Positions 1-28,417 of a stretch of DNA of 64,000 nucleotides are shown here, one piece after another; positions within the stretch are counted from its first letter, which is position 1; every line of letters starts with the position of its first letter. The position numbers and the translations under genes are program-made. Source of the DNA: Amphiscolops sp. MND2022 (lineage: Eukaryota); the NCBI GenBank assembly GCA_964187785.1, contig OZ076417.1, positions 17,050,001-17,114,000 of the forward strand. Direction: 5' to 3'. The notes under the pieces are model-generated. The model did no database searches. It was not told the origin of the DNA and saw nothing but the letters and a program-made list of their open reading frames with translations.

Positions 1-480
1 ACGTTTTTGAAAAAAAATCCGTGGTCTTGGTGCTTCTTTTTCATACAACACAATCCGCTCCCAATATTCAAAAGTGAACCTACGAAAAAAATCCACGACA
101 AAATTGTGCTTCGAGGAAGTCTCTTGCGTGAGAATTTGATGTTTTCTCAAACCACCAACAGTGTTTAGATCCTCCAACCTCACATTTAGGACAAAAAATT
201 GTTTGTGGTTTTGGCGCTTCTTTTCCGCGCCCACAATGCGCTCCCAATATTCAAAAGTGCACCTGAGAAATAATCGATGACAAAATTGTGTTTTGAGAGA
301 GTCTAGTGCAAGCGTATATGCGAAATTCTTAGAACCCCCCCCCCCTCAGAGATGTTTAGATCCCCTAATTTCTCATTAAAGAAGTTTGTCCAGATTTTTG
401 ATTTCCTACGATAGGTTTTTCTATTTCCTACGACAAAATCCATTCCATTTTTTTGAATTTGAACCTGCGAAAAAATCAAG
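1..480. repeat. About 183-bp degenerate tandem repeat
   Basis: CTCCCAATATTCAAAAGTG at about 58 and 241. Confidence 0.65.
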
Positions 481-607
481 GACAAAATTGTGTCTGAATG
501 AAGTCCCCTGCTTGTGTACATGCTACATTCGTGAACCCCCGAAGGCATCTAGAGCCTGTCATTTCACATTTATGAAGAAATTTCAACCTGAAGTTTGGTG
601 TTTTTTA

Positions 608-1235
608 TTAGTCGGCGCATTTTCCTTTAAGGAAAAAAGCCCGACTATTACAGTGGCTAGTTTTTTTTCTTTTTTTTCGTTAGACCACAGAGCTCATCGC
701 GTATGTACCACTTTTTACAGAAACTGATAAGTTCACTCAGGCCAAGTTCCACCAATGCAAACTTACTGCAAAGGGTCCCCCTTTCGTTTTTTACCTTTTT
801 TACGTAACCTACAAAACCGGAAGACTCCAAAGGGTCCCCCCTTTCAATTTTTTTTCGGCACTGTGCGAATTTTTTTTTCGAAAATTTTTAATTTTTCAAA
901 AGAGTCCCCCCTTCGGATTTTTTGATATTTTGCAACAGAAAGTATGTTAATGAATCCCAAAGGGCCCCCCTTTTCATTTTTCGGCACTATGCGACGTTTT
1001 CGAAGTTTTTTTCAAAAAAAAATTTTTTCAAAAAAATATTCAAAAAAATTTTCAAAAATTTTTTCGTTTCCAGTCGAGAAAAGTGATTTTCCAGTCATAT
1101 CGAGCATGAAAGGCACACTTTGGGTGTCTCGAAAGTGTTTTCAAAGCTTTTCATGAAGACATCCTGGGCATATTCAGAAAACTGAGCTTTTTGAGCCTTA
1201 GATATAGCGCCGACTTTAGATGTTCCCGTCTTGTT
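608..1235 (+). mobile_element. Helentron/HINE-like non-autonomous element
   Basis: T-rich site, 5' AGTCGGCGC within a TAGTCG..CGACTA hairpin, internal 60-bp subrepeats, 3' GCGCCGACT followed by a small hairpin and TGTT. Confidence 0.7.
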
Positions 1236-1304
1236 TCTACTTCATACAACCTTATACGTTATCTGTTCCCTATTTTCAAAGGTACACCTACTAAAAAACA
1301 AAGT

Positions 1305-1445
1305 AAAATATAGTATAGTATATTACAATATGTATTGTATGGTATAGTACAGCATAGTATGGTGAAGTATATTATAGTATAGTATAGTGTGGTATAGTAT
1401 AGTATAGTTAAGTATAATTTCCTGTGTAGTTAAGTATGGTATAAA
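1305..1445. repeat. Degenerate (TAGTA)n microsatellite
   Basis: Visible pentanucleotide periodicity. Confidence 0.8.
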
Positions 1446-4400
1446 AATAAAATAATAGAATACGTATCGTGGACTAAATCAGAAAACATAATATAGAAAA
1501 AGGAAATTATATAATATACCGTTGAAGTAAACTACATGTTATAAATGTTGGCAAGACTGTCTGAATTTTCGTCAAATGTATTCTTGAGCTAATTTTTACT
1601 TTCCGTCAATTTGATTTTCTGGATTCTCGAAAAAAAACCTTAACAAGTAAAAAAATTCTTCTTCATAATACTTTCAAGTAGGAAATAAGCAAAAGCAACC
1701 TTCACATCCGATATTCGAATGAAACTTGAAAGAAGATTATGGAGCGATGCAAACGGAACTATTGCCTCGGAGTTTGAATGAAGTATAGCGGCTGAACTTC
1801 ATCCAGTGAAAATTGATAGCGCGGCGGACAAACGAGGTATTTCAAAATGTCAAAAAGTACATCAATTCCGAATTTCAATTTGCAGTGTCATATTGAAACC
1901 TTAATAGTTCGAATAACTTTGACTTGCCGTTCCGGACCGTTTCCTAGGTCTCTGGTAGCCACAAATATTTTATTCAATGAAAACCCGAAGGTCTGGTATA
2001 GGTGAAGAGTAGTTATGAAGGGCTTAAGAATCCCTAGTCAATATCTTGCTAGGCGAAATGAATACGGAAATCTAATTAGATCTTCAACTACTGTTGGCAA
2101 AATGCAACACAGGTCCCGACTTGCAATTATAGGGTTCGTTTTTCTTACGCTGGATATTTTCACTTTTCCACCGATCGTGGGAAAGTGTCGAAAACCAGCG
2201 TTTGACAACCCAAACTCTTTCATTGTGAGCAAAAAATACTTTGTAAGATAATAGCAGTAGGGCCTTCTTCATGAACTCACGACAAAGGAAAGCGTTTCGC
2301 AATTTTCCATGGCCGCGCAATCATAAGGTGCGGTGCAGGGCTTTCCTTTCGATCGATTCAGAGACAGGCAGATCGATTCCTTGGAAGGAAGGGTGTTGCA
2401 ACGTTTGGGCCTCAGTCTTCTTTTCCAGGGTTGCCCCAGGAGTCCCATCTTGCACTACTGCTCGGATTTAGGTAAATCGTATACACACTCCCAGATATGT
2501 TGACTTTCAAAAATGACACTGTCGAAAGATGAAAGATCTAGAACTTCATAGTTTTGAAGAAACCTGCAATTGCATTTCAACCTGATCTGGCATTGATTAG
2601 GTTCTGAGAGTGTGTTCAGTGATGCTGGCGTTCTATTCTCTCATTTTCTAATGAGGAAAACACTGGTAGTGCGATGCCATTCGACACCGTCGGATTATGT
2701 AGAGAGGAAGTATGGTTGGTCCCTGACCCAGTTTGCATTTTTGATAGTCTGAGATCTTGGTTCTGGGTGCCTCCTAAGGAGGGTTCACTCGGAAGAAGGC
2801 CGAGGCTAGCTATCGTTTTGCAAGCTGTCACCCTATCCCGAGGGCTTAGCGACGTATCTTTGGAGGGAGACTTCTTTGGTTCGTGGGACAATACGCTACA
2901 CAGTGGGCAACTACGGCGTAAGCGAGTTCTTTGCGCATTTGGTGCTCTACACCAATGTACACGCGCTGGATACGGGTCACGCCCGTTTTCCCTAGGTTCG
3001 GTCACGAGCGTCATTTTGCCGGTGTTTTTTTCCGACAAAGCAAAGAAAACACTGATAAAAAGCCATTGGAGATGAAAAACCATTTTTCAAACTGTTGGTT
3101 CTCAATGTGCAACAAATCGTAACGAGAAATGTTTCTCAGTGAAGTTTTCTGGATGTGTAAATATCTTTTTGAATCTCGGGAAATATTTATAGCCTGCTAA
3201 TTCACATCAAAGAAAAGTTTGTTCATAAGTTATTTCTTGGTTTCGAGCCGACGCTAAAAACGGGTCACGGCGTTCTTCCCTAAATTTGGATACGCTCTTC
3301 ATTTTGCCGGCATTTTTCCCGACAAAATTAAATTGTTGCAATCAATTCGGTAAACGTTGACTTTTAATTGACTTTTGAGAACTGAGCGAAGGTCACTTTG
3401 TTCAAAAATGTGCATTTCTCTTAGTTATTCACTAACCAAATTATGAAAGTTCACCTACGAAGGGAAAATCAATGAACAAGCCACAACAGCAATTGTTTTT
3501 TTTTCGGGAAAATTGGAACTTCAGTCACTTCTGGTAAAGTCACCGAAAGCGACAACCGTCTAGTAGTTTAACAAAAGGTCATATTGAAATAGCGATGACA
3601 CGCTTTGAAGAAACACTGGATTCGAAACTCAATGAACTGATAAAACGCTTAATTTCCACGTTAGCGTCGGATTTTTGTCATCTATTGGCATGTCCATTCC
3701 AATGATTTTTTTCTCAAGGCTAGGCAATGACATTCAGGTTAGGATTCATTTAGGTCTATATAAGACTCCGCCACTTTCAGTTCAGACCCTTTCCCACAAG
3801 GCTGGCTCAAGGACGTCCGTCGCGGTTGACGTGGTCTATGTTATCGAACCAAGCCAACCAACAGCATGCTTTCACCACATCGGCTGCGCTCGTCAATGAT
3901 GGACGTCATTTTACGGAAGCTCACATCGAGTAAACTTAGGTCTTTTACCCAAATTCGGCCCACCTCCTCCACTTATTCATTTTTATAGTTTGTATATAGT
4001 AGTAGTTTCGAATGAAAATAGTGTAGATAAAGTGTATAAAGTGCATTATGTTCTGTTTAGTGTGAAAATTGTAAATAGTTTTTTTGAATGTAGTTTTGAT
4101 TTTTAATTAATAGGATGTCTTTTCCATGATGGTTACGTTTTCGTTCGCCAAGTTCGGCCCACCTCTTCCACTTTGCCAATATCAAAAATGCAGACAGCTT
4201 TGATGACTGTTCAACCAGTAAAGGCATTGCTGTTATATCGTAACCTTCACCTTCGTCTCTGGTTTCTTTGTTTCCCTCGAGACGAGGAAGTTTCCTGCCA
4301 ACTCCAGAAGTTCCGGGTTCATTGAGTTCAATCCAGTGTGTTCTAATATTCCTAACTTTCCTTACTGACTAATGTTACTAAACTTTTGTTTATTCCGACT

Positions 4401-4744
4401 CGACTTTTTATATTCTGACTCGAGTTTGTAACCTTTTACATTTTGTGTTATGTAATGTTTAAACTGTAATGTTCAAATGCAGCTGAACGAACAGAACACT
4501 TTCTCGATGAACCAACCAAGTGGTTTCTGGACGGCTGACCAGGCAAGGTAGACAACATCACTTCTCGGTTTCAGTCGCAGATGTGTTCACAGAAGTGACG
4601 GATCTTGTTGTTCAAAATATAAAGTTTCCAAATAACGTTCTTCTCAAACATTCGAACTGAAGATAAACTTCAATCAATCAAAACTTCGAGACTGTGAATT
4701 GATTGTGTTTTTGTATTGTGTTGTTCACTCCAATCTGTCTGACT

Positions 4745-5020
4745 TTACCTAGTCATGTTTGCTTACAGGCTTCTACCACTCCGAATGCCGGTGCTGGGCT
4801 CTTCGCCAGCAGAACACTTCCGTCATCGATTATCATGGAAAGTACGTCAACCAGAGCTCAGCCCGTGCAAGAAAAGGTGCGGACGAAACATACATGGAGT
4901 TACCAGCGTTCAGTAACTTTTTTAAATATTGATGCCACAAAGAGAAGCTAGTGTCATCAAGTTTCACCAAAATGGCGCTTTGTTAATCATTCTCATAAGC
5001 AAGCTAATTTATTTCCTGTC
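4745..5020 (+). pseudogene. Degenerate SET-domain segment (copy A)
   Basis: VCLQASTTPNAGAGLFASRTL...IDATKRS*...WRFVNHSHKQANLFPV, i.e. the GxG/GLFA and RFINHS..N motifs; internal stop. Confidence 0.65.
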
Positions 5021-5854
5021 TTGTTCTCTATCATCATCTTTTCCATAGTTATTCTTTTCTTCTCGATTTATAAAAAATAGGGAGGAGCTTATCTTTTCTT
5101 ACTCCCCCATAATAAATTCGGTGCTAATTTGTAAATATCAGAAAAGTATAACAATAATAGCCTTGAGCATGATTTAGTATAGTATAGTAGTAGTATAGAA
5201 AAATAGCGTTAAGCATAGTATTGTATATTAGTAGTAAAGAAGAGTATAGTATATGTAGTTTGTGAATATTGTTCTAAGAAACCCTTCATTTTTATAGTTT
5301 GTATATAGCAGTAGTTTCGAGAGAATATATCGTAGATAAAAGTGTATAGAGTGCTTTATGTTGTGTATAAGGTGGAATTTGTAAATAGTTTTATGCAGTT
5401 TTAATTTTGAATTAATAGGATGCTTTTCCATGTTGGTTACGTTTTCGTTCGCAAAGTTGGGCATAGCTTCTCCACTTTGCCAATATAAAAAATGCAGACA
5501 GCTTTGATCACTGTTCAACAAGTAAAGGCATTGCTTCGGAAGTTCATTGAGTTCAATCCAGTATGTTCTAATATTTCCAACGTTCCTTACTGACTAATGT
5601 TCTTAAACATTTGCTCATTCTGACTCGCCTTTATATACTGACTCGAACTTGTAACCTTTTCATGTTGTTATGTAATGTTTGAACTGTAATGTTTAAATGC
5701 AGCTGAACGAACAGAACACTTTCTCGACGAACCAAGAGAGTGGTTCCTGGACAGCTGCCCAGGCGAGATTTGAAAGATTCCAGGTACTTCGTAAGCTGTG
5801 TCCTACCTTCTACTGGAAGGTTTCACTAAGTGTTGGTATTCCAGAATTTTATAA

Positions 5855-6413
5855 ATGGTGCTTTCAGGCCTTGACGAATCCGTGACAATACTGCTGGCTG
5901 GAAAGAACTTGATTTTGTACTCCAGCAGCAAATCGAAAAGCCAGCAGCTCGTCCGGTTGCTAACCTCGGTGAAGGCCTTCATGAGCTTCCAGGAAAACCA
6001 ACAGTCGAGGTGTCTTCCACTACATGCAGCCAGGAGAGATGATCTTCCAGCCCAGCAATTGCGCTCATGCTGTCTCAACCCTTTCTCGAAGACGTTCGGC
6101 AATTACTGGCTGGGAGGGCTGCGACAGAGGTGACCCACGCCGAGTAACTGTTCGAAAAAGTACCTGTCAGTGGAAACCAGTTGTGGGGTGCATGCTAGCT
6201 CTCACGACAAGTCGTTTGCGTCGAGAGACAGGATTGTCCGAGGGCAAGAAGAAAAATCCTGAAGACTCCCAAATGGAATTCACAGACCACATTAGTCGAT
6301 TGTGTGTACATTTTGATATGAGAAATTTTGAGCTCCCTCGAACTGCTGGCACGAGGAGCGCCTCTCGCAATGTGGCAGCTGAAGGAACAGAACACTTCGT
6401 AGATGAAGCATAG
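5855..6413 (+). pseudogene. Degenerate JmjC-domain segment (copy B)
   Basis: SGLDESVTILLAGKNLILY, then after a frameshift GVFHYMQPGEMIFQPSNCAHAVSTL, matching the JmjC C-terminal QxPGExIFxP...HxV motif; HxD not intact. Confidence 0.7.
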
Positions 6414-6639
6414 TGGTTCCTGGACGGCTGCCCAGGCGAGGTGTACAACATTACTCCTCGGTTTCAGTCGCAGATGTGTTCACAGAAGTGGCGGAACTTG
6501 CTGTTCAAAATGAATTTTCTAAATAACGTTCTTTTCAAACTGTCAAAATGAAGAAAAACTACGATCAATCAAAACTTCCAGACAATTTTTTGTTTTTGTA
6601 TTTTGTTCACTCCAATCTGTCTGACTTTACCTAGTCATC

Positions 6640-6900
6640 TGCTTACAGGCTTCTACAATTCCAAATGCCGGTGCTGGGCTCTTCGCCAGAAGAACACTTC
6701 CATCATCGATTATCATGGGAAGTACGTCCGCCAGAGCTCAGCCTGTGCAAGAAGCAGTGCGGACGAAACATACATGGAGTTACCAGCGTTCAGTAACTTT
6801 TTTAAATATTGATGCCACAAAGAGAAGCTAGTGTCATCAAGTTTCACCAAAATGGCGCTTTGTTAATCATTCTCATAAGCAAGCTAATTTATTTCCTGTC
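6640..6900 (+). pseudogene. Degenerate SET-domain segment (copy B)
   Basis: STIPNAGAGLFARRTL; alternate frame IDYHGKYV...DETYMELP; then IDA...RFVNHSHKQANL. Confidence 0.65.
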
Positions 6901-7735
6901 TTGTTCTCTATCATCATCTTTTCCATAGTTATTCTTTTCTTCTCGATTTATAAAAAATAGGGAGGAGCTTATCTTTTCTTACTCCCCCATAATAAATTCG
7001 GTGCTAATTTGTAAATATCAGAAAGTATAACAATAATAGCCTTGAGCATGATTTAGTATAGTATAGTAGTAGTATAGAAAAATAGCGTTAAGCATAGTAT
7101 TGTATAGTAGTAGTAAAGAAGAGTATAGTATTTGTAGTTTGTGAATATTGTTCTAAGAAACCCTTCATTTTTATAGTTTGTATATAGCAGTAGTTTCGAG
7201 AGAATATATCGTAGATAAAAGTGTATAGAGTGCTTTATGTTGTGTATAAGGTGGAATTTGTAAATAGTTTTATGCAGTTTTAATTTTGAATTAATAGGAT
7301 GCTTTTCCATGTTGGTTACGTTTTCGTTCGCAAAGTTGGGCACAGCTTCTCCACTTTGCCAATATAAAAAATGCAGACAGCTTTGATCACTGTTCAACAA
7401 GTAAAGGCATTGCTTCGGAAGTTCATTGAGTTCAATCCAGTATGTTCTAATATTTCCAACGTTCCTTACTGACTAATGTTCTTAAACATTTGCTTATTCT
7501 GACTCGCCTTTTTATATACTGACTCGAACTTGTAACCTTTTCATGTTGTTATGTAATGTTTGAACTGTAATGTTTAAATGCAGCTGAACGAACAGAACAC
7601 TTTCTCGACGAACCAAGAGAGTGGTTCCTGGACAGCTGCCCAGGCGAGATTTGAAAGATTCCAGGTACTTCGTAAGCTGTGTCCTACCTTCTACTGGAAG
7701 GTTTCACTAAGTGTTGGTATTCCAGAATTTTATAA

Positions 7736-8294
7736 ATGGTGCTTTCAGGCCTTGACGAATCCGTGACAATACTGCTGGCTGGAAAGAACTTGATTTTGTA
7801 CTCCAGCAGCAAATCAAAAAGCCAGCAGCTCGTCCGGTTGCTAACCTCGGTGAAGGCCTTCATGAGCTTCCAGGAAAACCAACAGTCGAGGTGCCTTCCA
7901 CTACATGCAGCCAGGAGAGATGATCTTCCAGCCCAGCAATTGCGCTCATGCTGTCTCAACTCTTTCTCGAAGACGTTCGGCAATTACTGGCTGGGAGGGC
8001 TGCGACAGAGGTGACCCACGCCGAGTAACTGTTCGAAAAAGTACCTGTCAGTGGAAACCAGTTGTGGGGTGCATGCTAGCTCTCACGACAAGTCGTTTGC
8101 GTCGAGAGACAGGATTGTCCGAGGGCAAGAAGAAAAATCCTGAAGACTCCCAAATGGAATTCACAGACCACATTAGTCGATTGTGTGTACATTTTGATAT
8201 GAGAAATTTTGAGCTCCCTCGAACTGCTGGCACGAGGAGCGCCTCTCGCAATGTGGCAGCTGAAGGAACAGAACACTTCGTAGATGAAGCATAG
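7736..8294 (+). pseudogene. Degenerate JmjC-domain segment (copy C)
   Basis: Near-identical to 5855-6413. Confidence 0.7.
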
Positions 8295-8483
8295 TGGTTC
8301 CTGGACGGCTGCCCAGGCGAGGTGTACAACATTACTCCTCGGTTTCAGTCGCAGATGTGTTCACAGAAGTGGCGGAACTTGCTGTTCAAAATGAATTTTC
8401 TAAATAACGTTCTTTTCAAACTGTCAAAATGAAGAAAAACTACGATCAATCAAAACTTCCAGACAATTTTTTGTTTTTGTATT

Positions 8484-8897
8484 TTGTTCACTCCAATCTG
8501 TCTGACTTTACCTAGTCATGTTTGCTTACAGGCTTCTACCACTCCGAATGCCGGTGCTGGGCTCTTCGCCAGCAGAACACTTCCGTCATCGATTATCATG
8601 GAAAGTACGTCAACCAGAGCTCAGCCCGTGCAAGAAAAGGTGCGGACGAAACATACATGGAGTTACCAGCGTTCAGTAACTTTTTTAAATATTGATGCCA
8701 TTGACAGAAACTACTGCCATCAAGTTTTACCAAAAGGGCGCTTTATTGATCATTCTCATAAGAAAGGTAATCTACTTCCTGTCTCGTTTTCTATCATCTT
8801 CTTTCCCGTTGTTATTTTCTTTTATTCTTGTTTTATTAAAAAAGTGGGAGCTTTTCTTTCTCTCTCCCCCCATCATAAATTCGGTGCTATTTTGTAA
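8484..8897 (+). pseudogene. SET-domain-like ORF (copy C, least disrupted)
   Basis: 137-aa ORF holds both PNAGAGLFA and IDA...KGRFIDHSHKKGNLLPV in one frame; no ELxxDY motif within the ORF. Confidence 0.65.
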
Positions 8898-9959
8898 TTG
8901 TTTGTAAATATTAGAATAGTATGGATTATTAATAGCGTTAAGCATAGTACACTATAGCATACAGTTTAGAACAATATAATTTTGTAGTTTGTATAAATTT
9001 TTTAAACCCGTTTTTTATTTCAAAAGTTTATATAAAGAAGTAGTTTTTAGTATTTGTTTCGAGTGTATGTAGTGTAGATATAGTGATTATACTGGATTGT
9101 TCTGTATGGTGTAAAAATTGAACATTGTTGTTCAAATGCTGTTTTAATTTAGGTATTTGACGTTTTTCCCATGTTGGTAACGTTTTCGTCAATTTGGCCG
9201 TCTCTCTAAAACGTGATCTACCGATGCCTTGTCAGAAATTATTTTTGATTTACAGTGGATAGTCCCACAAGAGCTTCAATTCCTAGATATACAGGTAGTT
9301 ACAATAACAGAAATTTGTTGGACATGTCGGGAAAAGGTCAACAGTTTGCTTCCATGGACTGCAATTCAGCGACTCCCACTAGTCACCGATGAAAACAACC
9401 CCAAATAAGTTCAACATAAACCTTCACCCGGAATCAATTAGTTTCAAGGACCTATACGAAGTTCTCGCTTACAGAGCTCTTGACAACACTAGACAACAGA
9501 GCTCTTGACAACAGAGCTCTTGATCCACTACTGGAAGAATTGCTGTGACACATGAAACTCTAATGGCACGCACATGATTTTTTTCAACTTCTTTCAACCT
9601 TTTCACTGTATTAGGTTATTCACTACAATAAAACTTATGCATTCAATGTTTATTCATTGAATGAGAAAGGCCGCAGACCGCCAGCAATATTATTAAAAGT
9701 TGGCCGAAGAGCGCTTGTAGAAAATTAAAAATGTTGAGTTGATCAAAAGAAAATTTCAAATTTAGATAGAGGCAAGTGAACTTCCTTTGTTTAGGATCCC
9801 CCTAAATTTAATTCTCACACTTATAGTCACTGCCGAACAAAATATCTGAATTTTTCAGTATCACGACAAGAATTTTACAGAAAGAAAGTAGACATCTTGA
9901 GATTTCAATATTATTCCTGATACTGCAGAAATATTAGTAACAGATTTCTTAAAAAATGC

Positions 9960-10670
9960 TTCCGGTGACTGCTCCTTAACATCCGTTTGTTGAACTTTTG
10001 TAAAGTATACCACTCTGAAAGTGATATGGTTCAATGTAACTTCAAAAATTTATCGGTAGCAAACTCTCCAACGAAGCGAAGGTAACAATGACACAACTCT
10101 GAAAACGTTTGATGAAAAAAAATTCCACAATTTCCGAACTTCAAAAACCTGGCTCCAGTGATTCTTCGTTATTTTCCTTTTGTTGAAAGTTCGTTAATAA
10201 GGGCACTCCAAAAGCGATATGGTTGGAGGGACCTTCGAAAATTCATCAAAAACAAACTTCGAAATGAAGTGAAATCGAACATTGTCACAATTCTGAACAT
10301 TTTTGATGAAACAAAAAAACAACATACCCGATTTCTTGAAAAACTGCTTCCAGTGACTCTTCCTTAATTTCGATTTGTTGAACTTTTGTAAAGTATTCCA
10401 CTCCCAAAGTGATATGGTTCAATGGAACTTCGAAAATTCATCGGTAACGAACTTTGAAATGAAGTGAAGGTGAACACTGACACAACTTTGAAAACGTTTC
10501 ATGAAACAAATTACCACATTTTCCGATATTCAAAATCCTGCCTCCCTCGAGGGATTCTTTCTTAGTATCCGATTGTTGAAATTTTGTTTAAAAAGAGCAC
10601 TCCAGAAGTGATATATGGTTGGAGGGACCTTCGAAAATTCATCAAAAACAAATTTCGAAATAGTAAAATG
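9960..10670. repeat. About 195-bp satellite, 4 copies with alternating (dimeric) structure
   Basis: G(T/C)GATATGGTT at 10021, 10214, 10409 and 10608 (the last with an extra AT); copy 1 resembles 3 and copy 2 resembles 4. Confidence 0.8.
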
Positions 10671-10756
10671 CGCTTCTTGTAAATTTGACATTCTGGAGAA
10701 AATCAAGGTCGAATTTGAGTACAACAACCGTGGAATAGCATTTTTCAAGCGGTGAT

Positions 10757-11047
10757 TGTTTAGTGATCAACTAAATTGTTAAACTGGAGAATCAAAACCA
10801 GAGGTGAGGTTAAGAATCAATTGAAGTTTGCGTCTTCTATCTATGGCGGTATGAAAGAAGTGAAAGGAGCTCGAGAGCTATATATTATTTACAAACAATA
10901 CCGGTCGATGGCTGTAGTTTTTAGGAGGCTTAAATCATTTGTAAACAAACATGTCAATCAAACTGCACAAATGTAAGTGTCAATCAAAGATGTCAGTGAC
11001 GTATTAGTAAACATCATGTCATTCAAAATTAGATGTGGCAGTGAACA
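10757..11047 (-). repeat. 3' LTR of BEL/Pao element
   Basis: Copy of 17643-17933 (the same 66-aa ORF appears at the same offset in the ORF track); preceded in element sense by purine-rich AAGGCGGCCGGTA; outer side flanked by GTGAT. Confidence 0.95.
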
Positions 11048-11060
11048 TACCGGCCGCCTT
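11048..11060 (-). promoter_or_regulatory. Polypurine-tract-like site of BEL element
   Basis: AAGGCGGCCGGTA immediately precedes the 3' LTR TGT in element sense. Confidence 0.65.
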
Positions 11061-11093
11061 GGACCACTAGGTGCAAAAGTTAATGAGTTTCAG

Positions 11094-11994
11094 ATGAAAA
11101 TGTCAAGGAATGTAAATGTTGAGACAGTGAAGGAAGCTGTGAAAATTCTGGAAGATGCAGTTGGAGGAGTTGGGGTCAATCACAGGTTGCCCATCAAGAC
11201 GGTTCATGAAATTGAGCAGGATCCTACAAAGCCAGCTGTCGTCATCGAGCCTGTCATGAGATATCTGGAGGCGCGATTTGAAGAGTCGTCTCGAACGGCA
11301 TCAACCCAATCCTCTATTTTGAAGGACTTCGAGTTTAGAGTAAGGCACCGGTGGGGAGCATTTGGAGAGTGCAGTGTATTTGAAGGCCGGCTATCCTCGC
11401 ACACCAGTCGAAAGATTCTATCAGCTGCTTCAAGATGTGTTATTCGATATCGAACCTGGCAATAAATCTCTTTGTCACGTTGGTGATGCTCAACTTCTGT
11501 GGAATGACAGCTGTGCCTTCTCTCAATGGCACGCTGATTTGAAGGACAGAACTGTTGCTGTCTGGTCACAGTTGCAAAGAGGTAGAAAGTTGTGGTTTGT
11601 GGCTCCTGGAAGGCGTAGCTTGAGTTGGTTTGTGGGATCGTATCGACGGGACCTATTTACATGGGCTGGGGAACTCAAGAGAAAATGGCCAGAGCGTCTA
11701 CAGTGTCATGTCCAGCTTCCGGGTGAGGTCATCTACCTTCCACCTGGTTGTGCACACTGTGTCCTGTCACCTGAGGCGTCCACATTGTTGTCGTTCCATA
11801 TTGAGCTCCCAGAGGTGATTTTGTATCCACGAACCGAGGCTGCTCTGAAGAGAATTCTGCCTGATACAGATGAAAGCCAGGATGAGTTTGAGCGGCCCAC
11901 AACACAGGGATCTTCCAAATCCAAATCTGTGCGAAAGGGTCGACAGTTGCCGAAGAGAAAAAGGAAGTTCTGTCGTGATAATTCTAAACGCTGA
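11094..11994 (+). CDS. JmjC-domain Fe(II)/2-oxoglutarate oxygenase (JMJD6/JMJD4-like motif spacing), antisense cargo of the BEL element; one frame switch or short intron near 11340-11390
   Basis: ORF 11362-11994 has FSQWHAD (H 11530, D 11536), GRKLWFVAP (K 11587) and QLPGEVIYLPPGCAHCV (H 11755), plus a basic tail RKGRQLPKRKRKF. The upstream frame is open from ATG 11094 (MKMSRNV...DPTKPAVVIEP). Confidence 0.85.
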
Positions 11995-12385
11995 TCAAGG
12001 TTATTAATATTTTTCATCATTTTATGTTACTGCAAACAATTTATTTTACCGCAAACTATAAATCAAATATTTAACTATAAATGTTTTCAATTTACTTCAT
12101 CGAACCATTTACTAGAGCACTTAAGAAACAGCAGCAGCTGATAGTAGCACCAGCTCGCTGAACGGTCAGTTCAGAAGGAAGTAAAAACAAAATTTTGGTA
12201 TTGCAAAAGAAATCAAAGAGAAACAAAAAGTTTTGGGTTGGTAACTCAGTAGCATGCGCGTGCGCGCAGTCCGAATGCTCTCAACAGGTTTCTGTGAAGC
12301 TTAGCAACGGATAGAGAAGAGCATTGGGAGGGTCATGACGTAGCCCGATTTAGGTTAAGGTTAGTAAGCGTTGAGAAAAATAGTT

Positions 12386-15300
12386 TTATTCATCGAAAAA
12401 GAGTTTGACTAGTTTCGTAAGCGGGCGAGTAAAAATTCCATTGGCAGTTTGTACACGAGCGACACGTGCTGTTCCATCATTTCCAGTGTAGAGATTCAGA
12501 ATCCGTGCACGAGGCCAGTGGAGTGGCGGAACTCGATCTTCCTTGATGAGAACCAAGTCAGAGACCTGTAGAGGTTGAGTGTCGAGCTTCCATTTGTCGT
12601 GCTGCTGTAAATTCGACAGATACCAGCGGGACCAGAAGCTGTCATGAATTTGCTGCACTAACTTCAATCGGGTGTGAAGTGTAAATCGGGCCTTTGGTGG
12701 AGCATTGCTACTCTCAGTTGGCAGAGAATGTAAGGGCGCACCGATCTGAAAATGTCCAGGCGATAGTACTTCCATATCGTTAGGATCGTGCGACATTGGA
12801 GTCAAAGGACGTGAGTTGAGGCATGCCTCCACATGGGCAAGTACTGTGCTGAGCTCCTCGAAGGTCAACGCTTGCAAGCCAATAGATCGTCTGAGAATTT
12901 TACAGCTCTTGACCGCTGCTTCCCAGAGTCCGCCGAAGTGTGGGGCCCTTGGAGGGATCGTGACCCATTCTACTCCTCGTGTGGCTGCATACGCGCTCAG
13001 TGAAGACTCCTTGTTGGTACTTAATAGGTCCTGGAGGGCATTCAACTCATTGCGAGCACCGATGAGAAGATGGTGCTTGGCAGACCACGCCGTGCTACAA
13101 ATCTTTTGAGGCCACCAATACAAGCTGCTGATGTGAGGGCTGAGACTAGTTCGATATGAACAGCCTTTGTTGCGAAGCAAACGAAGATGAAGATGTAGGC
13201 CTTTTGTGTGGATCTCGACATTGAACTTTTCAGTGTGAGCGGGCCGGCGAAGTCCAGTCCCGTTTTGGTGAAGGGTCGACTGGGAGTTATTCGCTCTGCT
13301 GGAAGATCGCCCATTCGTGGTTGCTCCGCTCTAGCCATGAACCTGCGACATGTAGTGCAACCTCGAATTACCCGCTGAACACATCTCGGACCATCAATAA
13401 TCCAATAATGTCGGCGGAGTTCATAGAGAGTAGCTTGCGGACCGCCATGAAGAACATCTGCATGAGCTTTTCTGATGAGAAGTGTGGCAAAATGGGATTT
13501 TCCCGCGATGATTGCTGGATAGGTTGCATCAGTGTCGTGTGAGCCCTGTCCGAGTCGACCACCAACTCTAATGATAGAGAGCTCTTCGTCGAAGAAGGGG
13601 GAGAGGGAGAGGAGTCGTCCATGATACTGTGACATGCGCGTGTGCGCAGCCAAGTTTTTGAGATCCTCGCCAAGGAACTGTTTTTGATGAAGCGTCACGA
13701 GCTTGCTGCGTGCCTTGACGAGCTCCGATTGTTGAATTGGGCCTTGAATGGGCGATAAACCACTGAAACTGTCCAAAAAGCGTAGAACGAAAACAAGTGT
13801 TCTTTGCAGACGGTTGAAATTAGAGAAGCAATCAAAGTCTATTACAGCTCGTTTTTCGACCAAATGTAAGCCGGTGAGTGGCCTCTTTCGTTTTTCGGGG
13901 GATGCTGTTGTGGGAATGGAAGGCTGATGGGGCCATGAAGAGTCGCAGTGGCTTAGCCAGGAAGGTCCTTGCCACCAGAGATCAAATGAGATCATTTCTG
14001 ACGCTGTCAAGCCACGCGATACACAGTCCGCAGGATTTTGATCGGATGAAACATGCTTCCATTGGGACGGGGGAATCTGTTCCTGAATGAGAGCCACCCT
14101 GTTACCGACAAAACAGCTCCAGGTTCCAGGATAACTGGCTAACCATGACAGCACGATTGTGGAATCTGTCCATCCAATGATTTCTGTTATTGTTATCGGA
14201 AGGCTTTGCAGAGCGTTGATGGTCGAGCGCAATAACTGGGAACCCAGGGCAGCAGCGCAGAGTTCTAGACGAGGTAGTGTGAGTGTTTTGATTGGAGCAA
14301 CCCGTGACTTGGACGTGAGAAGCGAAACCTTTATTGTTCCATCTGTTCTCTTCACTCGTGAGATCACTGCTCCATATGCCACTTCAGAAGCGTCACAGAA
14401 AACATGAAGTTCCATCGTTGTCTCCGTTTGATTAGGTATGAGCACACACCTAGGAATATTGCGTCTTGAGATGTTGGGAAGATCAGTACGAGCAGAGAGC
14501 CACGACTCCAAAATGTTGGGAGGAACATCATCGTCCCATGCCACGCCTGCCACCCAGGTTTGCTGAACCAGGATCTTGAAACGAATAATGACGGGTGAGA
14601 GCCAGCCTAGTGGGTCATACAGCTTGGCTATGTCGGAGAGCATCTGTCGTTTTGTTTTCACAACTCGAAAGCTGCCTTCACCAGAAACTGTGAAGTGGAA
14701 GACATCCTGGAGCGGGGACCAGTGAACACCAAGAACTTTAATCTGATGGGTGTGATCATGGATTTCATAGGCTTCGGGTGCTTCCTTCAGTTCAGCAGGC
14801 ATGTGACAGATTGCCTCGGGCTTGTTTGATGACCACTTTCGCAGTCTCATGCCAGCACACTGAAGGGTTGATTGAAGTGCATCCTGCAATTGCCTTGCCT
14901 CATCCACTGTTGGTGCTCCAGAAAGCATATCATCAACAACGAAATCCCTCAAAATTACCTGTCTCGCATTGGCATGTTCACTCTCTTTCCCTACAGCTTG
15001 CAAACTCTTGATAGCATGATGTGCTGATGATCTCACTCCATATGTCACGCGAGTCATGCGCCACGTCTGGATTGGGTCACAAGGTTGGTCTCGCCAAAGG
15101 ATGCGGTGGTAGTCACGGCTGGAGGGGTGTAGACCGATTTGCCTGTACATCTTCTCTACGTCTGCTGAGAGGGCCACAACATGAAATCGGAAACTCAGTA
15201 AAATGTCGCAAAGATTGTCCTGGAGAGTTGGACCTGTCATCAATGAGTCGTTAAGTGACGTGCCATTCGTGGTAACAGCTGAAGCATCGAACACAATCCG

Positions 15301-16173
15301 TAGCTTTGTTGTGGTACTGCTTTCCTTCACTACGTGATGGTGTGGCAAGTAGTAGACATCATGGGGTAGCTTGAAGAGTTCATCAGAAGGTACTCGTTCG
15401 AGGTGACCGGCATCAATGAAACCATTCATGAAGTCGACGTATGCCTGTTTCTGAGGGTGATTGGCTAGACGTCGTTCTACACTAAGCAGTCGTCTTTTGG
15501 CTTGGGAGAAGCTGTCGCCAAGGGGTTGGGCATCCGGTTTGAAAGGAAGTTTGACAATATATCTTCCTTCAGCATCACGAGTAGTCGTCTGAATGAAGAA
15601 ATCCTCGCAGGCCTTTTCTTCAGCTGAAAGCTGCCTCTCCGGTGATGTTGGAATATTCTCGATTTCCCAAAAACGAGACAAGAGCTTGTCTGCTTGGGAG
15701 TCATTGCAGGGGGAACTGAAATGAAGAGTTTGAGCGTTGCATAAAAGTGTTCGAGCTGTCTTGTGTTCCAAAGTTGATTTGGTCTGATCCGAATAAAGCG
15801 TGCCACTGAGAACCCAGCCACACAGTGTTTCCCGAACGTAGAGTCGGGGCTGTATCTGAAACTTGTTATTCAGAACAATGGTTTCGAAGAGGTCAACTCC
15901 TATGAGCAGGTCAATTGGGCCGGGAATATTGAAGTCAGGATCTGCGAGATGGAGCTCTTCCATTTGCTTGAGGGACGACTTGTCAATGGGATGCGTTGGA
16001 AGGTTATACGTGATCGTTTTCAGAACCAGAGCTGTGGTCTGTAGTTGTTCTGACTTGTAGGGACACCAGAGATCCAGAGTAACTTCAGACTGGGGTCGTG
16101 GCATGCGCGTGCGCGCTATCCCTGTGTAGGTCACAGCTGTACGGGTTTGCTTCAGCCCCAATTTCTGAGCCAT
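12386..16173 (-). pseudogene. pol: BEL/Pao Pol (protease remnant, RT, RNase H, integrase), frameshifted
   Basis: ORFs 13042-16173 and 12386-13180. RT: LPHHHVVKESSTTTKLRIVFDAS, ADVEKMYRQI, FVVDD. RNase H: LHVFCDASEVAYGAV. IN: H..H/CTTC, GLDFAGP, HFGGLWEAAVK. The SDNGTNF motif is deleted with a frameshift near 13063; the protease D(S/T)G motif is absent at about 16174-16230. Confidence 0.93.
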
Positions 16174-16227
16174 GTGGGTGATAATTGCCTTTTAGCCTAA
16201 TTGTTGTGATAAACTTATTAAATAGAA

Positions 16228-17577
16228 TCATCTTGTCAAAATGGTCGCAGTTCCAATCGACGTCCCAGCATCCTTGGTGTGTCCCACTTGTTGTAGGTCC
16301 TTGTGAAGAAGCGTGTGATGTTTCCTCTGGCATGTCCTGCATGTATTTTTACTCGTACACGCCTTTGGTCGATGCCCAGTTGAGAGACAATTGAAACATA
16401 CATCCAGTTCCTTGGCCTTGGTGTATCGTTCGTCAGTAGAAAGTTCGTTAAAAACTTGGCACTTGAAGAGGCGGTGGTCAGAAGCCTTGCAAAGGATACA
16501 ACCTTGCTCTTGTGTTCCCAGGTACGAGTGATTGTGAACTGAAGACTGCGGCTTGGATGATACCTTCTGTGTAACCTCTTGACCCGACTTGGTAGGACTT
16601 GCTTCTAATGCTCTCACACGTGCCGCTAGAAAGGCTAGTAGGTCCGGCAGTGTTTGGGGATCCGCATTACTTCCAGCGGAAGGTTTTTGAAGCTCCCACA
16701 GCTTTCGTGTTTCTGGATCTAACTTCTCGGCAATGAGAAAAACGATGAGATGATCATCTGTGACACCTAACTTGGATAGGGCTGACGTGTGCTCGTGCAT
16801 TACTGTGTGCAGTTTACGTAGCGCAGTGGAATGCTCGGTCCTCAAAGTAGGGTAGTTGTAGAGTGCTTGGAATCGAGCCCGAAGAATACATCGCTTGTTC
16901 TCGTACCTCTCACGGATTAGTCCACATGCGATTGGATAATTGTCATCAGTTATCGATAAAGAAGAGACAACCTTGAACGCTTCACCCTTGAGGGAACTCT
17001 TGAGATAGTTGAGTTTTTGGGAACCAGATAAGGAATCAGCATCAACTGATGCTTGAAACTGGTCCCAGAACGATGTCCATTCAGTATACTTGCCATCGAA
17101 GAGAGGAAGTGCAATCTTAGGAAGTTTGACCTTACCTGAGGGGCTGGCGGATGTTTGAACTGTTGATTGGGGAGTTTTGATTAGGTACTTGACTTCTGCG
17201 AGCTTCTCCTTTACCCTGTCAACGTATTCGAGAATATCGATTTCCTCATCCGCGCGTCGTTCATCGGTCATCATTTGCAGGATCTCTTCGTCAAGCTGTA
17301 TCAGCGTTCCCAACTTTTCTGTCAGTCGTTCGTGGCAACCTCTAATCTGTTGAACGATAGATGCATTGGCGTCCGCTTGCGGGATAAGATCGTCCATCTT
17401 GGATATGAGCCTTGCTACAGCGCCACGATGTGCAGCTCGGGTCCTTCTGATACGAGATTCCTTGGAAGATGGAGATGATTCTGGACTTTCGTCATCAGTG
17501 TGGGCTTCCAGCACCGATAGGGACTTCTTCTGCCGCTTGGACTGTTTAGACTTGGCCATTGAGCATCGATAAGACAA
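16228..17577 (-). CDS. gag: BEL/Pao Gag (DUF1759-like region, three Cys/His knuckles)
   Basis: 449-aa ORF: KLPKIALPLFDGKYTEWTSFWDQF, CILCKASDHRLFKC, CFNCLSTGHRPKAC, CRTCQRKHHTLLH. It stops where the protease should begin. Confidence 0.93.
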   Translation of the reverse strand: MSYRCSMAKSKQSKRQKKSLSVLEAHTDDESPESSPSSKESRIRRTRAAHRGAVARLISKMDDLIPQADANASIVQQIRGCHERLTEKLGTLIQLDEEILQMMTDERRADEEIDILEYVDRVKEKLAEVKYLIKTPQSTVQTSASPSGKVKLPKIALPLFDGKYTEWTSFWDQFQASVDADSLSGSQKLNYLKSSLKGEAFKVVSSLSITDDNYPIACGLIRERYENKRCILRARFQALYNYPTLRTEHSTALRKLHTVMHEHTSALSKLGVTDDHLIVFLIAEKLDPETRKLWELQKPSAGSNADPQTLPDLLAFLAARVRALEASPTKSGQEVTQKVSSKPQSSVHNHSYLGTQEQGCILCKASDHRLFKCQVFNELSTDERYTKAKELDVCFNCLSTGHRPKACTSKNTCRTCQRKHHTLLHKDLQQVGHTKDAGTSIGTATILTR

Positions 17578-17622
17578 TTGTAGTTTTGAAGAGATAATTG
17601 AACTAAATGGAGAACCGATTAG

Positions 17623-17640
17623 GTCCCTTGTGGGGCGCCA
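17623..17640 (-). promoter_or_regulatory. Primer-binding site TGGCGCCCCACAAGGGAC (tRNA-Lys-like)
   Basis: Begins with TGG 2 nt inside the 5' LTR; 15/18 match to the classic tRNA-Lys(UUU) PBS TGGCGCCCGAACAGGGAC. tRNA identity is tentative. Confidence 0.8.
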
Positions 17641-17642
17641 AA

Positions 17643-17933
17643 TGTTTAGTGATCAACTAAATTGTTAAACTGGAGAATCAAAACCAGAGGTGAGGTTAAG
17701 AATCAATTGAAGTTTGCGTCTTCTATCTATGGCGGTATGAAAGAAGTGAAAGGAGCTCGAGAGCTATATATTATTTACAAACAATACCGGTCGATGGCTG
17801 TAGTTTTTAGGAGGCTTAAATCATTTGTAAACAAACATGTCAATCAAACTGCACAAATGTAAGTGTCAATCAAAGATGTCAGTGACGTATTAGTAAACAT
17901 CATGTCATTCAAAATTAGATGTGGCAGTGAACA
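17643..17933 (-). repeat. 5' LTR of BEL/Pao element
   Basis: TG...CA termini, adjacent to PBS, outer side flanked by GTGAT TSD. Confidence 0.95.
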
Positions 17934-18455
17934 GTGATGACTATGAGAGCTCAGAAAGTATGGACTGCTGGAGGAGTTAATCCGAGCAATACTTGAGTTC
18001 AAGAGAACAACTTTGACCCACAAGGGAGGATTGCATACAATTACTTCGTTTAAAATTGATTGCTGGCTACATCAATTGATGCTTGACTGATGAATTCTCG
18101 AATTAAGTATCAAAAGTCAGAAGAAAAATGATAAGGTTTTCGAGAACTGACATGCTGTTTTTGGGCCTTCTAGGCAATTGTTTCTCGATGATAAGAAACG
18201 AACAGCGGAAATTGATTAAAGAACAAGACCAACTAAATGCATTTCCCTTCCAGGGAAACATTTATTTCAACGCAAGAAGTTGGTTTTGGATCTCATCGTT
18301 ACAAAAAATTTGAAAATTTAAGAACAAAACCAAAAACATAAAATCAGAAACGTATCTGATACATCGTCTGAAACGTTCCTCAAATTTTGCCTCATTTGTG
18401 GCGACAGGGAAGAGTGTCGATTGAAACGATGAGGTGTAACATATAATAATGACAA

Positions 18456-21400
18456 CTACAAAATATTACAATTCGAATTTGTATTATTATTTCTGGACCT
18501 GCAAGGACTGCAGTTACTGTTATTTCTCTGTCTCCTATTGCTAACAGGTTGTCTACTCCTGTAGTTGGGCGAGGAGGAGGATGGTGAATATGAATAAGAG
18601 GGTGCCAGTTCGTCCGCAGCCAGCTGGTTCTCCGTCTGTTGGATTCGGCGAGCCAGTTCTTCGTCGTTTCTGCACTGCTCCGCCTTGTCCAGTCTCAGAG
18701 CCAGTTCGTAGTCCGAGGCAGCAACCGCAGAGGTATCCGTCACCTGGACAAGAAATAGGATATAAAAACGTATTTGGAGACCCTTTGCAGGCCCTACAAA
18801 TACCCTTTAGAGACATTAAAAAAAGACTTAAAAAGTCTCAAAGCCGAAAGAGGGTAAGTGTGTGTGCCGAAAAAACCAAAAGGGGCCTTTCTTCTTTGGA
18901 ATGGTTTTGTATTTCATGTTACAGGCTTTGGATGCGAAGTAAGAAAACGATCAAGTCATTCAGCCCAGTTTAATGTCAAATAGAATCCAATCCGAATTCG
19001 GCACTGTGAGACAAGGTTGTCACCTGGTTGGAGTCTATGATGACAAACTCTGAGGGGTCAGTAGGTGCAACTGGTGTTGGGTCACCCACACCTGTTTCCA
19101 CTTCGGCCGAATGAGAGACTTGAGACTTGGTGAAGAAGCTGTTGACAAACTCGTTGTCCCCGTGCACACAAGTGAGAGCCTCCCACACTACCGAATGCAC
19201 CCTGAGGAAGCCTTGGTCAGTCACTAGCTGGTACAGAGCACCTGTCGCAAACAACAACACTTGCATGAAATCGAACCCGCTTGACTGGAGACCAAGCACA
19301 TATATATTATTCACCTAGTAGAATCCAATTACAGTGGAATCCGCCAAATTCTCATCTCTAGGGACCGAATAAAATGTTACGAACAATGATAAATACTGAT
19401 CAACAGGATGAAATTACTGTGATCGTCGGGAAGAGGGTTTCGAAGATACGAACTAAACTAAGATCCGAAATATCCGAATACGAATTAACCGCAGTTGACT
19501 GTAGTATGTAGGGCTTGATTGCTTATAACTAAAATTTCAAGAATATCAAAGGATGAGGTCAACCTAATTGGTGACTAAACATTAAGCATGGATATTTTCC
19601 ACGCAAATTTTGTCCTGGAAAAGCTTCTCAACTTGGTTTCAAAACCAACAACGGAACTGGTTAGGCAACCAAAAAGCTGCCGAAAACCCGTGCAGTATCG
19701 CGATTTTGAATGAAAATTTTGATTGAAACAAATTTTCAAAATGATTGTCATGAACAAAGTGATTAGTTCCCAAAGATCAATTGTATCAAGCTTAATGTGA
19801 AATCCCGGAGGATAATTTTGCAGGACTTTCCAGAGATGAACAAGACAGCCACTAAGCGCCGTGATTTTTAAGGCGCCACAAAATTTCAGGCTCCAGCCCG
19901 GGTTCGAACCCACGACCTCCTAAGTAAGGAGTGAGTGAGACTTGCTTGAACTGGCCTTGGTGTTTGGTGATGGTGGAAAAGTGGTTATTCCTGAACAGCA
20001 CTGTCACTTGTTGCTCCTTCAGCTGAGAAGTCAGCTCGAATAGTCCATGGTAAGTGAGCTACAACACAAACATATGCATTCAAACTCAACGCTTCAACTT
20101 ACAAAGTGATAGACATTCACGGAGGAATAAGCCAAATGTTCTTGCTTAAATTCACGTTAAACTTTACGAAACACGGGCTCTTGCGAACAAAACAACCTGT
20201 TGTTTTCTCTACATGGAATTCAAGTAAGAGCATTTTTCGTCACAGCTTACATCGGCAAATTACATTTACATTTTCAACGAAACAATTTGGAGAGAGTTTT
20301 CAAAAATATATAAGGTGTATGTTTATGAACCTGATTGGATGTGCTCTCTAGGAAGTCTCCAATGAGGACTCTACCCACGCCATCGTCATCCTCTTTTTCT
20401 TCCAGAGCCAGTTCCACACACTTGTTGTAGTAGTTGTCCCCTATCCGGGAAAACAACTCCACATTCTGAGGGTCCACTAACCAACCATGGTATAGTCTGG
20501 CAACAAAAAAAATCACAATCGATAAATGAAAAAAAAGTGCATCCACTGATAACTCAAGATATTTTATCAGATAGGCAATTCAAAAAATACTTTTCTTTTA
20601 ATATTTCGGCTCATTTAAAATTGCCCAGACAGATCAGTAGGTCAGAGCATCAATAGCAAAAAAAAGGAAAAGATAGACCTTTCCGATCAATCTGGGTCTA
20701 TCCTTTTCTATTCAAAGGAAATTCTTGGTCAACAGTTGTTTATTTCAATCGAATACACTTACCGACAGAAGTTCAGTCCTTTGCTGAATAAGTCCAAATG
20801 CTACAAAACGTTTCATAGAACAACAGCAGTAAATTGTGCTGTTTTCATTTCTGAAGCTCAAATTTTTCCTCACAAAAAGATTTCACACACTTCCGGTTCT
20901 TCAGCTGAGTTTAATTAAGGACAGAACTTTTTTCAGTAAGTATAGTTTGAGGGGGGACTCTTCAATTAGTCGAACACGTATTAATTTAGCGACCATGGTA
21001 TGACGTAATAAAATGAATTGATTTCGGCCAATCAAATTCGAGCATTCAAAATTACGATAACGTAGTCAGATATGTTCACATACCCCTAGTGCTCTAAATG
21101 CAGGAGCGAAGCGGAGCGACGTGCCATATGGCCATGCCTCAATGTTGCTACTCGGCGAAGGGAGCGAAGCGACCGAGCCATACAACAAATATGTTATTCG
21201 CCAAAAAATAAAACCAAATGAAAATAATCGCTGATATGGAATTCTTTCGACGAATTGAATAGCTTTGCATTTTCCGACGATTGGAATGTTCGACGAATTG
21301 AAGTTGCACCAGTTTGAGGTAAAGCGTCAGATGAAATTTGCATCCAATAACAGTTTGTCAGTTTTCAGAATAATTTTTCATGCCAACCTGAAATCGAAAA

Positions 21401-27400: not shown

Positions 27401-27469
27401 GCTTTCCTCTGAAGTACTTTCTGATTGACTCGCCAAAACAGGGTCCTGCTCTTCTTGCAAGGCAGTCAT
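18456..27469 (-). CDS. MINDY1/2: MINDY1/2-family K48 deubiquitinase (FAM63), 6 coding exons, 433 aa
   Basis: Exons 27469-27139, 24894-24699, 20496-20331, 20058-19956, 19241-19024, 18743-18456 join in frame (1302 nt). Motifs: catalytic TQNENGPCPLIAI, DVNVGF, LYHGWLVDPQ, FRNNHFST, LVTDQGF; MIU-like DYELALRL and DEELARRIQ; C-terminal CaaX CNIL. Intron 4 needs a GC donor. AATAAA (- strand) at 18261-18266. Confidence 0.95.
19860..19945 (-). mobile_element. tRNA-derived SINE fragment in MINDY intron 4
   Basis: GGTCGTGGGTTCGAACCCGGG T-arm/B-box on the - strand. Confidence 0.5.
20855..24410. repeat. Two-copy tandem duplication (period about 1784) inside MINDY intron 2
   Basis: Near-identical ORFs at 21265/23049, 21526/23310 and 21944/23728. 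Confidence 0.93.
21766..22283 (-). mobile_element. Related HINE-like element (second copy at 23550-24067)
   Basis: AACAAGCCGGGAAAG end and a hairpinned other end ...GGCGATTTTAGTCAACTAAAAGCGCCCACTG; subTIR match is imperfect. Confidence 0.45.
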
Positions 27470-27809
27470 CAGACCTGAAAATGGAATGTGAAATGACAGT
27501 TTGTATTTACTTTTTTCTCCTAACCCCGCGATTGGTTCCAAATTGCCACAGTATAGCTTGTATTATCCGAACAAGGTTACCTTTGGCTTAATGAACATTG
27601 GTGGGACGACATCACTACCGCTGCCTACTCAATAATAGCGAAAGCTGCGCAACACATCAACTTGGAGACAAAACAAGAACTTCATGAAAAATTCTCTGGA
27701 AGTTACTCTAACGTGGAATATCAACTGACAATTATTATCATTATGGCTTTGTACGGCAGTGCGGATACGAATTGAATCACTACGGTCGAAAACAAGGGTT
27801 ATCGACATC

Positions 27810-28217: not shown

Positions 28218-28417
28218 NNNNNNNNNNNNNNNNNNNNNNNNNNNNNNNNNNNNNNNNNNNNNNNNNNNNNNNNNNNNNNNNNNNNNNNNNNNNNNNNNNN
28301 NNNNNNNNNNNNNNNNNNNNNNNNNNNNNNNNNNNNNNNNNNNNNNNNNNNNNNNNNNNNNNNNNNNNNNNNNNNNNNNNNNNNNNNNNNNNNNNNNNNN
28401 NNNNNNNNNNNNNNNNN
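28218..28417. other. Assembly gap (200 N)
   Basis: Run of N. Confidence 1.

Follow-up and report, generated by a model that had tools for sequence, protein, structure and literature searches.

The window analysed here is a 64,000-nt stretch of contig OZ076417.1 (positions 17,050,001 to 17,114,000; assembly GCA_964187785.1, Amphiscolops sp. MND2022). Near its start, the + strand holds a tandem array with a period of ~1.88 kb that comprises three SET-like and two JmjC-like segments, every one of them broken. JmjC domains, of histone-demethylase type, and SET domains, of methyltransferase type, have opposite chemistry. The JmjC motif QPGEMIFQPSNCAHAV occurs at 6027 and 7908, and the SET motif PNAGAGLFA at 4781, 6661, and 8544, all on the + strand; IDYHGK is found at 4825, 6705, and 8588 in a frame differing from that of PNAGAGLFA, HSHK at 4988, 6868, and 8751, and a fourth SET motif, ELIFSY, lies in a third frame downstream of the other three. 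The JmjC and SET motifs quoted in an earlier reading made from the letters alone (the sequence-only reading) were all recovered where it had placed them on this strand, and the interval of about 600 bp that it gave from JmjC to SET measures ~625 bp between the JmjC motif and the SET start. The array is organized as follows.

3976..5284, + strand: unit 1 (short), with 5′ part, pre-SET segment X-Y, gap, and SET, without the JmjC half and the linker
5285..7163, + strand: unit 2 (full), with 5′ part, extra X, JmjC C-terminal half, linker, X-Y, gap, SET, and AT-rich spacer
7164..~9026, + strand: unit 3 (full), matching unit 2 at 99.5% as far as the SET segment, with the 3′ part of SET 84% identical to the others
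~9048..9189, + strand: partial start of a fourth unit, 69-73% identity
5699..5770 (also 7580-7651), + strand: extra segment X before the JmjC half, 86% identical to the other X copies

Full units thus run in the order AT-rich spacer, 5′ part, a 70-bp X, JmjC C-terminal half, linker, a second X with Y behind it, a 139-152 nt gap, and SET, and the short unit 1 is devoid of all sequence between the two X copies. The additional X was probably made by a local rearrangement, as its similarity to the other copies suggests, and the 5′ part of the units yielded no Pfam match. Comparison of 4925-6640 with 6805-8523 revealed 1707 matching bases out of 1715; since the two full units are 99.5% identical, the JmjC-SET pairing counts as one event, and units 2 and 3 are not independent examples of it. 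The 5′ part of SET is the same in units 1 and 3 (157/157) and differs in unit 2 (145/157), and its 3′ part is the same in units 1 and 2 (215/215) and differs in unit 3 (178/211), so that the SET copies are mosaics, a pattern that would be accounted for by unequal crossing-over or conversion. Both the 99.5% identical block and these mosaic identities could also be read as a partial artefact of assembly, with haplotypes joined and the JmjC-SET neighbourhood real but single. Other parts of the units, in contrast, differ by 8-16%, for which real paralogy or strong heterozygosity would be needed, and we regard an artefact as highly improbable; it would affect copy number alone and is compatible with the fusion pseudogene argued for below.

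Differences between the SET copies of the window are mostly nonsynonymous, and in a codon-position test nonsynonymous codons outnumbered synonymous ones in four of five segments. Such tests among the window copies evidenced no clear selection, which fits divergence after gene death. Because the SET frameshifts are common to all copies and the differences mostly nonsynonymous, the gene appears to have been dead before most of the copying took place. Elsewhere in the window, an unrelated tandem duplication of ~1875 bp spans 30572-34319 (1850/1875 identical), indicating that tandem copying is not peculiar to the JmjC-SET cassette. A further repeat pair with a spacing of 1784-1791 bp lies at 21105-24361, a run of 200 N at 28218-28417 marks an assembly gap, and an Rfam scan of positions 1-20000 returned no matches. 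The window derives from an intron-containing eukaryote, with the exon of a MINDY deubiquitinase host gene, bounded by GT-AG ends, at 27074-27562 on the − strand (Pfam E 2e-18).

The three SET copies share most of their lesions.

4769..5108, + strand: SET copy 1, interrupted by three frameshifts and one stop; GxGLFA, IDYHGK, RFVNHS, and ELIFSY in order
6649..6988, + strand: SET copy 2, breaks identical to those of copy 1
8532..8875, + strand: SET copy 3, frameshifts as in copies 1 and 2, 3′ part more diverged

To score these remnants we used a profile drawn from 83 viral-contig loci with the SET start motif, of which 37 that also had a C-terminal motif were retained (46 were dropped) and 31 were unique; all 10 of the profile proteins that were tested are Pfam SET, and the N-terminal motif used for collection was removed from the profile before the window was scored. 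X-read-throughs with hand-chosen breakpoints reached 13.5, 12.3, and 4.0 bits for copies 1, 2, and 3, values attained by 0 of 972, 0 of 960, and 2 of 925 scored shuffles. Single-frame pieces also matched the profile in the correct order, the middle piece with E 0.005-0.009 and the last piece with E 0.0004 in copies 1 and 2 (no match in copy 3), covering positions 10-98 of 108 in copies 1 and 2. The GxG, YxG-like, RFxNHS, and ELxxxY motifs are all present with proper order and spacing, spread over three frames. In the Atlas, the copy-3 SET frame fell with PF00856 clusters in 25 of 30 matches at 0.93, which we take as a lead only, the shared features (137-145) being under the 170 typical of same-family matches. 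A protein search with the same frame returned 19 candidates (lengths 84-270), none at E 0.1 or better.

The JmjC remnant and the segments that join it to SET map as listed.

5867..6149, + strand: JmjC C-terminal half, copy 1, with a frameshift near 6010; strand-4 Lys and distal His kept, no in-frame HxD ahead
7748..8030, + strand: JmjC C-terminal half, copy 2, 602/605 core bases identical to the first copy
6150..6374 (also 8031-8255), + strand: linker, in the same frame as JmjC in the relative P0083, with two more frameshifts in the window
6375..6509 (also 4479-4616 and 8256-8390), + strand: pre-SET segment X-Y, 34/44 residues matching the end of P0083, one stop codon

With the JmjC of a BEL retrotransposon farther along the window as query, 13 of 221 candidates and 21 representatives led to a compact unnamed JmjC protein family, and a MAFFT alignment showed the two window pieces to be collinear with its members P0052 and P0045. 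A search with the alignment of window and family retained 16 of 3446 candidates, one of which, P0083, is a direct relative. This protein of 235 residues, stop-free and encoded on a 198-kb ENA contig, aligns to the window from 5837 through 6512; identity to 6015-6512 is 56% over 178 columns (E 5e-55), with more matches from 5837. P0083 scored 25.1 bits on a JmjC profile of 23 sequences that included neither itself nor the window, the best of 1000 shuffles reaching 7.1. An alignment-guided model of its residues 1-100 adopts a cupin half-barrel, with a predicted local distance difference test score (pLDDT) of ~90 over residues 21-90, its top Foldseek matches are JHDM1A, PHF2, and KDM7A (E ~1e-3), and comparison with cupins gave a Z of 9.3 (VIA; root-mean-square deviation 1.8-2.4, 71 aligned). 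A double-stranded beta-helix (cupin) core is therefore recognizable, via P0083, for the C-terminal half only. The distal His and the 2-oxoglutarate-binding Lys are retained in both window copies. Altogether, P0083 and the custom profiles support a small, near-complete SET domain together with a JmjC fold of which the C-terminal half is present. The window JmjC is a far-diverged member of a compact multi-copy JmjC family; in the tree, P0083 forms a long branch (2.75) with unsupported placement.

No HxD iron ligands occur in frame in the window JmjC or in P0083, and the match to JmjC strands 1 and 2, which carry HxD, on the + strand of 2000-9300 is not significant (87 of 200 shuffles equally good). 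The sequence-only reading had paired an eraser with a writer, an activity that cannot be claimed with these ligands not found. The HxD part may have lain on a lost exon. A short deletion as the cause of its loss was dropped, because the frame of P0083 runs upstream likewise without HxD; a second 5′ fragment of JmjC at 3740-3930 (+), which by eye resembles the strand 1-2 motif, was rejected as not significant; and the likeness of segment X to the JmjC strand-2 motif, again by eye, found no support in Pfam or PDB. To the eye, X also has what we take to be the look of a degenerate PR-type zinc knuckle, for which Pfam and PDB gave no support. Searches for kin in other collections were negative: no locus related to the SET frame, P0005, or P0083 was found in viral contigs, none related to P0083 or P0072 in metagenome contigs, phage tblastn gave E 1 or worse, and PDB sequence searches returned nothing meaningful.

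Whether JmjC and SET once belonged to one gene or to two hinges on the joint between the pre-SET segment and SET, where the following features were delineated.

6510..6648, + strand: putative intron, 139 nt, 70% A+T, ending in a branch-like CTGAC, a pyrimidine run, and ACAG, and starting with AT, not GT
4617-4768 (152 nt) and 8391-8531 (141 nt), + strand: putative intron in the other copies

The JmjC half, the linker, and X and Y stand in a single stop-free frame in P0083. This protein ends one residue past a Lys that, in the window, precedes the gap of 139-152 nt, which is 70% A+T compared with 49% for the coding part, and beyond the gap an acceptor-like AG sits exactly at the first SET codon. 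This AG belongs to the four, among 139 AG sites in unit 2, that read YAG, have a branch-like motif, and lie clear of other AGs. In natural SET proteins, the S-T-I-P motif is preceded, at a distance of one residue, by a hydrophobic-x-hydrophobic-Lys strand, and this first strand is missing from the window SET segment. Scored on a matrix of SET first-strand positions, which lay outside the search pattern, the five residues before the final Val-stop of P0083 are among the three best of its 231 five-mers, and only 1% of window five-mers score as high. In addition, no in-frame Met occurs between the last upstream stop and the SET start in units 1-3, X-Y precedes all three SET copies, and the JmjC frame of unit 3 continues across its 141-nt gap and on into that of SET, meeting only two stops.

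On these grounds, we favour the view that the array is probably the pseudogene of one spliced JmjC-SET fusion gene, in which Y would have been spliced to SET. The remnants of both domains, their order, and JmjC, linker, and pre-SET as one open frame in the natural relative P0083 are direct observations. The tandem JmjC/SET cassette proposed by the sequence-only reading is real and frameshifted, with profile scores beyond those of shuffles and a match to P0083, Pfam being negative and JmjC represented by its C-terminal half only. Of the two origins that reading offered, a relic of a JmjC-SET fusion is the better supported; a mobile chromatin module is not borne out, with no terminal repeats, transposase, reverse transcriptase, or Helitron end found around the array.

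Several observations weigh against a fusion gene. Pfam gave no JmjC or SET match in any of five tandem frames or six further pieces including P0083. For JmjC, neither the tandem frames nor P0083, nor the JmjC part as an X-read-through, reached the gathering score of PF02373, a cut-off below which many intact JmjC relatives likewise fall; for SET, with three frameshifts per copy and Pfam negative on single frames, there is no intact frame matching PF00856. Both domains are hence supported by the custom profiles and P0083, and neither by Pfam. Folding P0083 from its single sequence, with no JmjC alignment, gave a pLDDT of 37 and no match, and an Asn replaces its distal His, so that P0083 may be dead too. 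The window's own five strand residues are at chance level, no better than 36% of random five-mers, and the first-strand test consequently rests on one relative, P0083. A GT donor after the Lys codon is absent from all three window copies, which have AT instead. X-Y alone shows no protein-level constraint (~1300 of 3000 simulations), and an intron proposed before the JmjC half is doubtful because the match of P0083 there (7 of 10 residues) is as good as that in the exon. Finally, SET was found in none of 127 fetched proteins, a weak negative given that the gene calls appear not to join exons.

Some of these points would also fit two separate neighbouring genes, one encoding JmjC-linker-X-Y and the other SET, for instance as cargo of a transposon whose ends and transposase were lost. 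The stop directly after Y in P0083 and the missing donor in the window would follow naturally, the other JmjC relatives are all stand-alone proteins (~200-340 residues, many of them clustered on long contigs in sets of up to 10 near-identical members), one JmjC group rides in BEL, and SET-carrying transposons are described in the consulted part of a published account (PMC12730594). However, a separate SET gene would here have neither its own start nor its first strand, 139-152 nt leave little space for a promoter and a first exon, the end of P0083 fits the missing SET strand, and no element ends were found. We consider this arrangement rather unlikely.

A chance chimera would instead be made of dead pieces, an old rearrangement having brought half a JmjC gene up to a SET gene and its pre-SET part, with P0083 being one more decayed copy of the same junk repeat. 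Just half a JmjC domain is present, P0083 lacks the distal His, signs of shuffling are plain in the array (an additional X, SET copies that are mosaics), and the unrelated 1875-bp duplication suggests that such arrays are ordinary here. Against it, and in favour of a fusion gene, speak the substitutions between window and P0083: when neutral drift was simulated at equal identity, only 6 and 14 of 3000 runs gave a mean as conservative as the observed one, a signal that comes from the first JmjC piece and the linker. P0083 is moreover stop-free where 2840 of 3000 neutral simulations (94%) carry a stop, a figure biased by the fact that gene callers return open frames only. We deem a chimera quite improbable.

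Under the fusion-gene reading, the ancestral gene would have encoded a compact JmjC and, after it, a small SET domain, separated first by a linker (~75 residues) and then by a pre-SET segment (~45 residues); a phase-0 intron would have lain within the first SET strand, and the N-terminal JmjC half, including HxD, presumably on a lost upstream exon. Its protein may have worked on chromatin, with SET adding a lysine methyl mark, as the still readable NHS and terminal Tyr motifs suggest, and JmjC removing, hydroxylating, or merely binding another mark. Gene death would have come first, and unequal crossing-over or conversion would then have multiplied and shuffled the pieces. The array makes no working enzyme today.

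Traces of mobility were sought around the array. Neither long inverted nor flanking direct repeats were found, nor any termini or transposition genes of a transposable element, and its flanks match none of the BEL, zf-BED, or reverse transcriptase-like frames of the window, although an element of an unfamiliar type could have gone unnoticed. The single CTRR-hairpin candidate, at 9492, falls on a 15-bp tandem repeat. Downstream lies the BEL element whose JmjC served as query.

10757..17933, − strand: young BEL/Pao retrotransposon, long terminal repeats 291/291 identical, 5-bp target duplication
10977-11994, + strand: JmjC gene in BEL, antisense, between pol and the 3′ long terminal repeat, WHAD and distal His kept, one frameshift near 11340

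This BEL JmjC is better preserved than the tandem cassette, and it has intact, multi-copy relatives, P0002 and P0005 among them. The sequence-only reading had placed the cassette 1.5 kb from the JmjC-carrying BEL. Identical long terminal repeats and its own 5-bp target duplication indicate that BEL inserted recently and separately. In one motif its JmjC agrees with that of the array at only 13 of 28 residues, and the two have no DNA similarity; the closeness of the loci looks incidental. It is plausible that the array JmjC descended from transposon cargo, since the nearest JmjC families are multi-copy and one of them is BEL cargo. A more far-reaching reading, which we hold to be unlikely, is that this lineage has or had a transposon-borne JmjC-SET fusion, a mobile writer-plus-eraser swapping a silencing for an active histone mark on its own element; such a fusion would belong to a broader radiation of compact JmjC genes carried by transposons, and intact copies might then persist elsewhere in the genome.

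Other repeats and JmjC proteins came to light alongside. Immediately before the BEL insertion site, 9943-10669 holds a 195-bp tandem repeat in 3-4 copies; a broken BEL pol remnant of greater age, which has 35% identity to the young BEL, lies at 59169-60061 (−), and an open reading frame at 36115-36759 (+) includes a BED zinc finger and is probably left over from a DNA transposon. P0052, P0071-P0080, and P0085-P0128 make up a second unnamed JmjC family, whose proteins measure ~200 residues, have HxD..H intact, and are clustered on long ENA contigs in sets of up to 10 near-identical members. A further group of compact JmjC proteins, P0040-P0048 and P0051 from ENA and Logan, is more distant and has basic tails at the C terminus.

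Comparison with known systems draws on the consulted parts of the papers cited. Filamentous fungi (Neurospora, Aspergillus, Magnaporthe) have a JmjC-SET family of untested activity with JmjC followed by SET in one polypeptide, the order seen here (PMC2474616). By description, that family is confined to filamentous fungi and its SET3/4-like SET bears Arg substitutions at catalytic motifs, whereas the window combines a canonical RFxNHS SET with a compact multi-copy JmjC type in a broken gene. In Phaeodactylum tricornutum, bd1647 unites SET and JmjC in one transcript, as confirmed by cDNA PCR (PMC3145265); it shares the two-domain pairing and differs in its reverse order, its listing as SMYD type, and its being an intact host gene. 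SET fusions are also tabulated for the JMJD2/KDM4 clade (PMC2938197), which likewise pair JmjC with SET; neither the HxE nor the Zn-binding cluster of KDM4 could be shown here. Transposon-borne chromatin modifiers, namely HarbingerS and MuDR with SET and the TET/JBP transposons (PMC12730594), together with an orchid Gypsy carrying AlkB (PMC9289625), illustrate a possible ancestral mode of life, and a JmjC-carrying BEL adjoins the array. These published cases involve one modifier within defined element ends, in contrast to two domains with no ends found in the array. The nearest sequence family of the window JmjC half is that of the compact proteins P0002-P0128 (25.1 bits via P0083), which have WHxD or FHxD and end shortly after the barrel, unlike the window half with no HxD in frame. 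Within open-access text (Repbase and subscription journals being outside its scope), a literature search found no animal JmjC-SET fusion and no JmjC-carrying BEL. The putative fusion in the window appears to be built from different parts than the known ones.

The array is a dead, half-preserved copy, and its value lies in pointing to intact relatives and to a large unnamed family of compact JmjC proteins. The published JmjC-SET fusions of filamentous fungi and of one diatom gene are functionally untested. If the fusion reading is true, the array would record a fusion that arose independently, out of a compact JmjC type associated with transposons and in what appears to be an animal genome; this would imply that the pairing has been invented repeatedly, and it would point to transposon anti-silencing as a driver.

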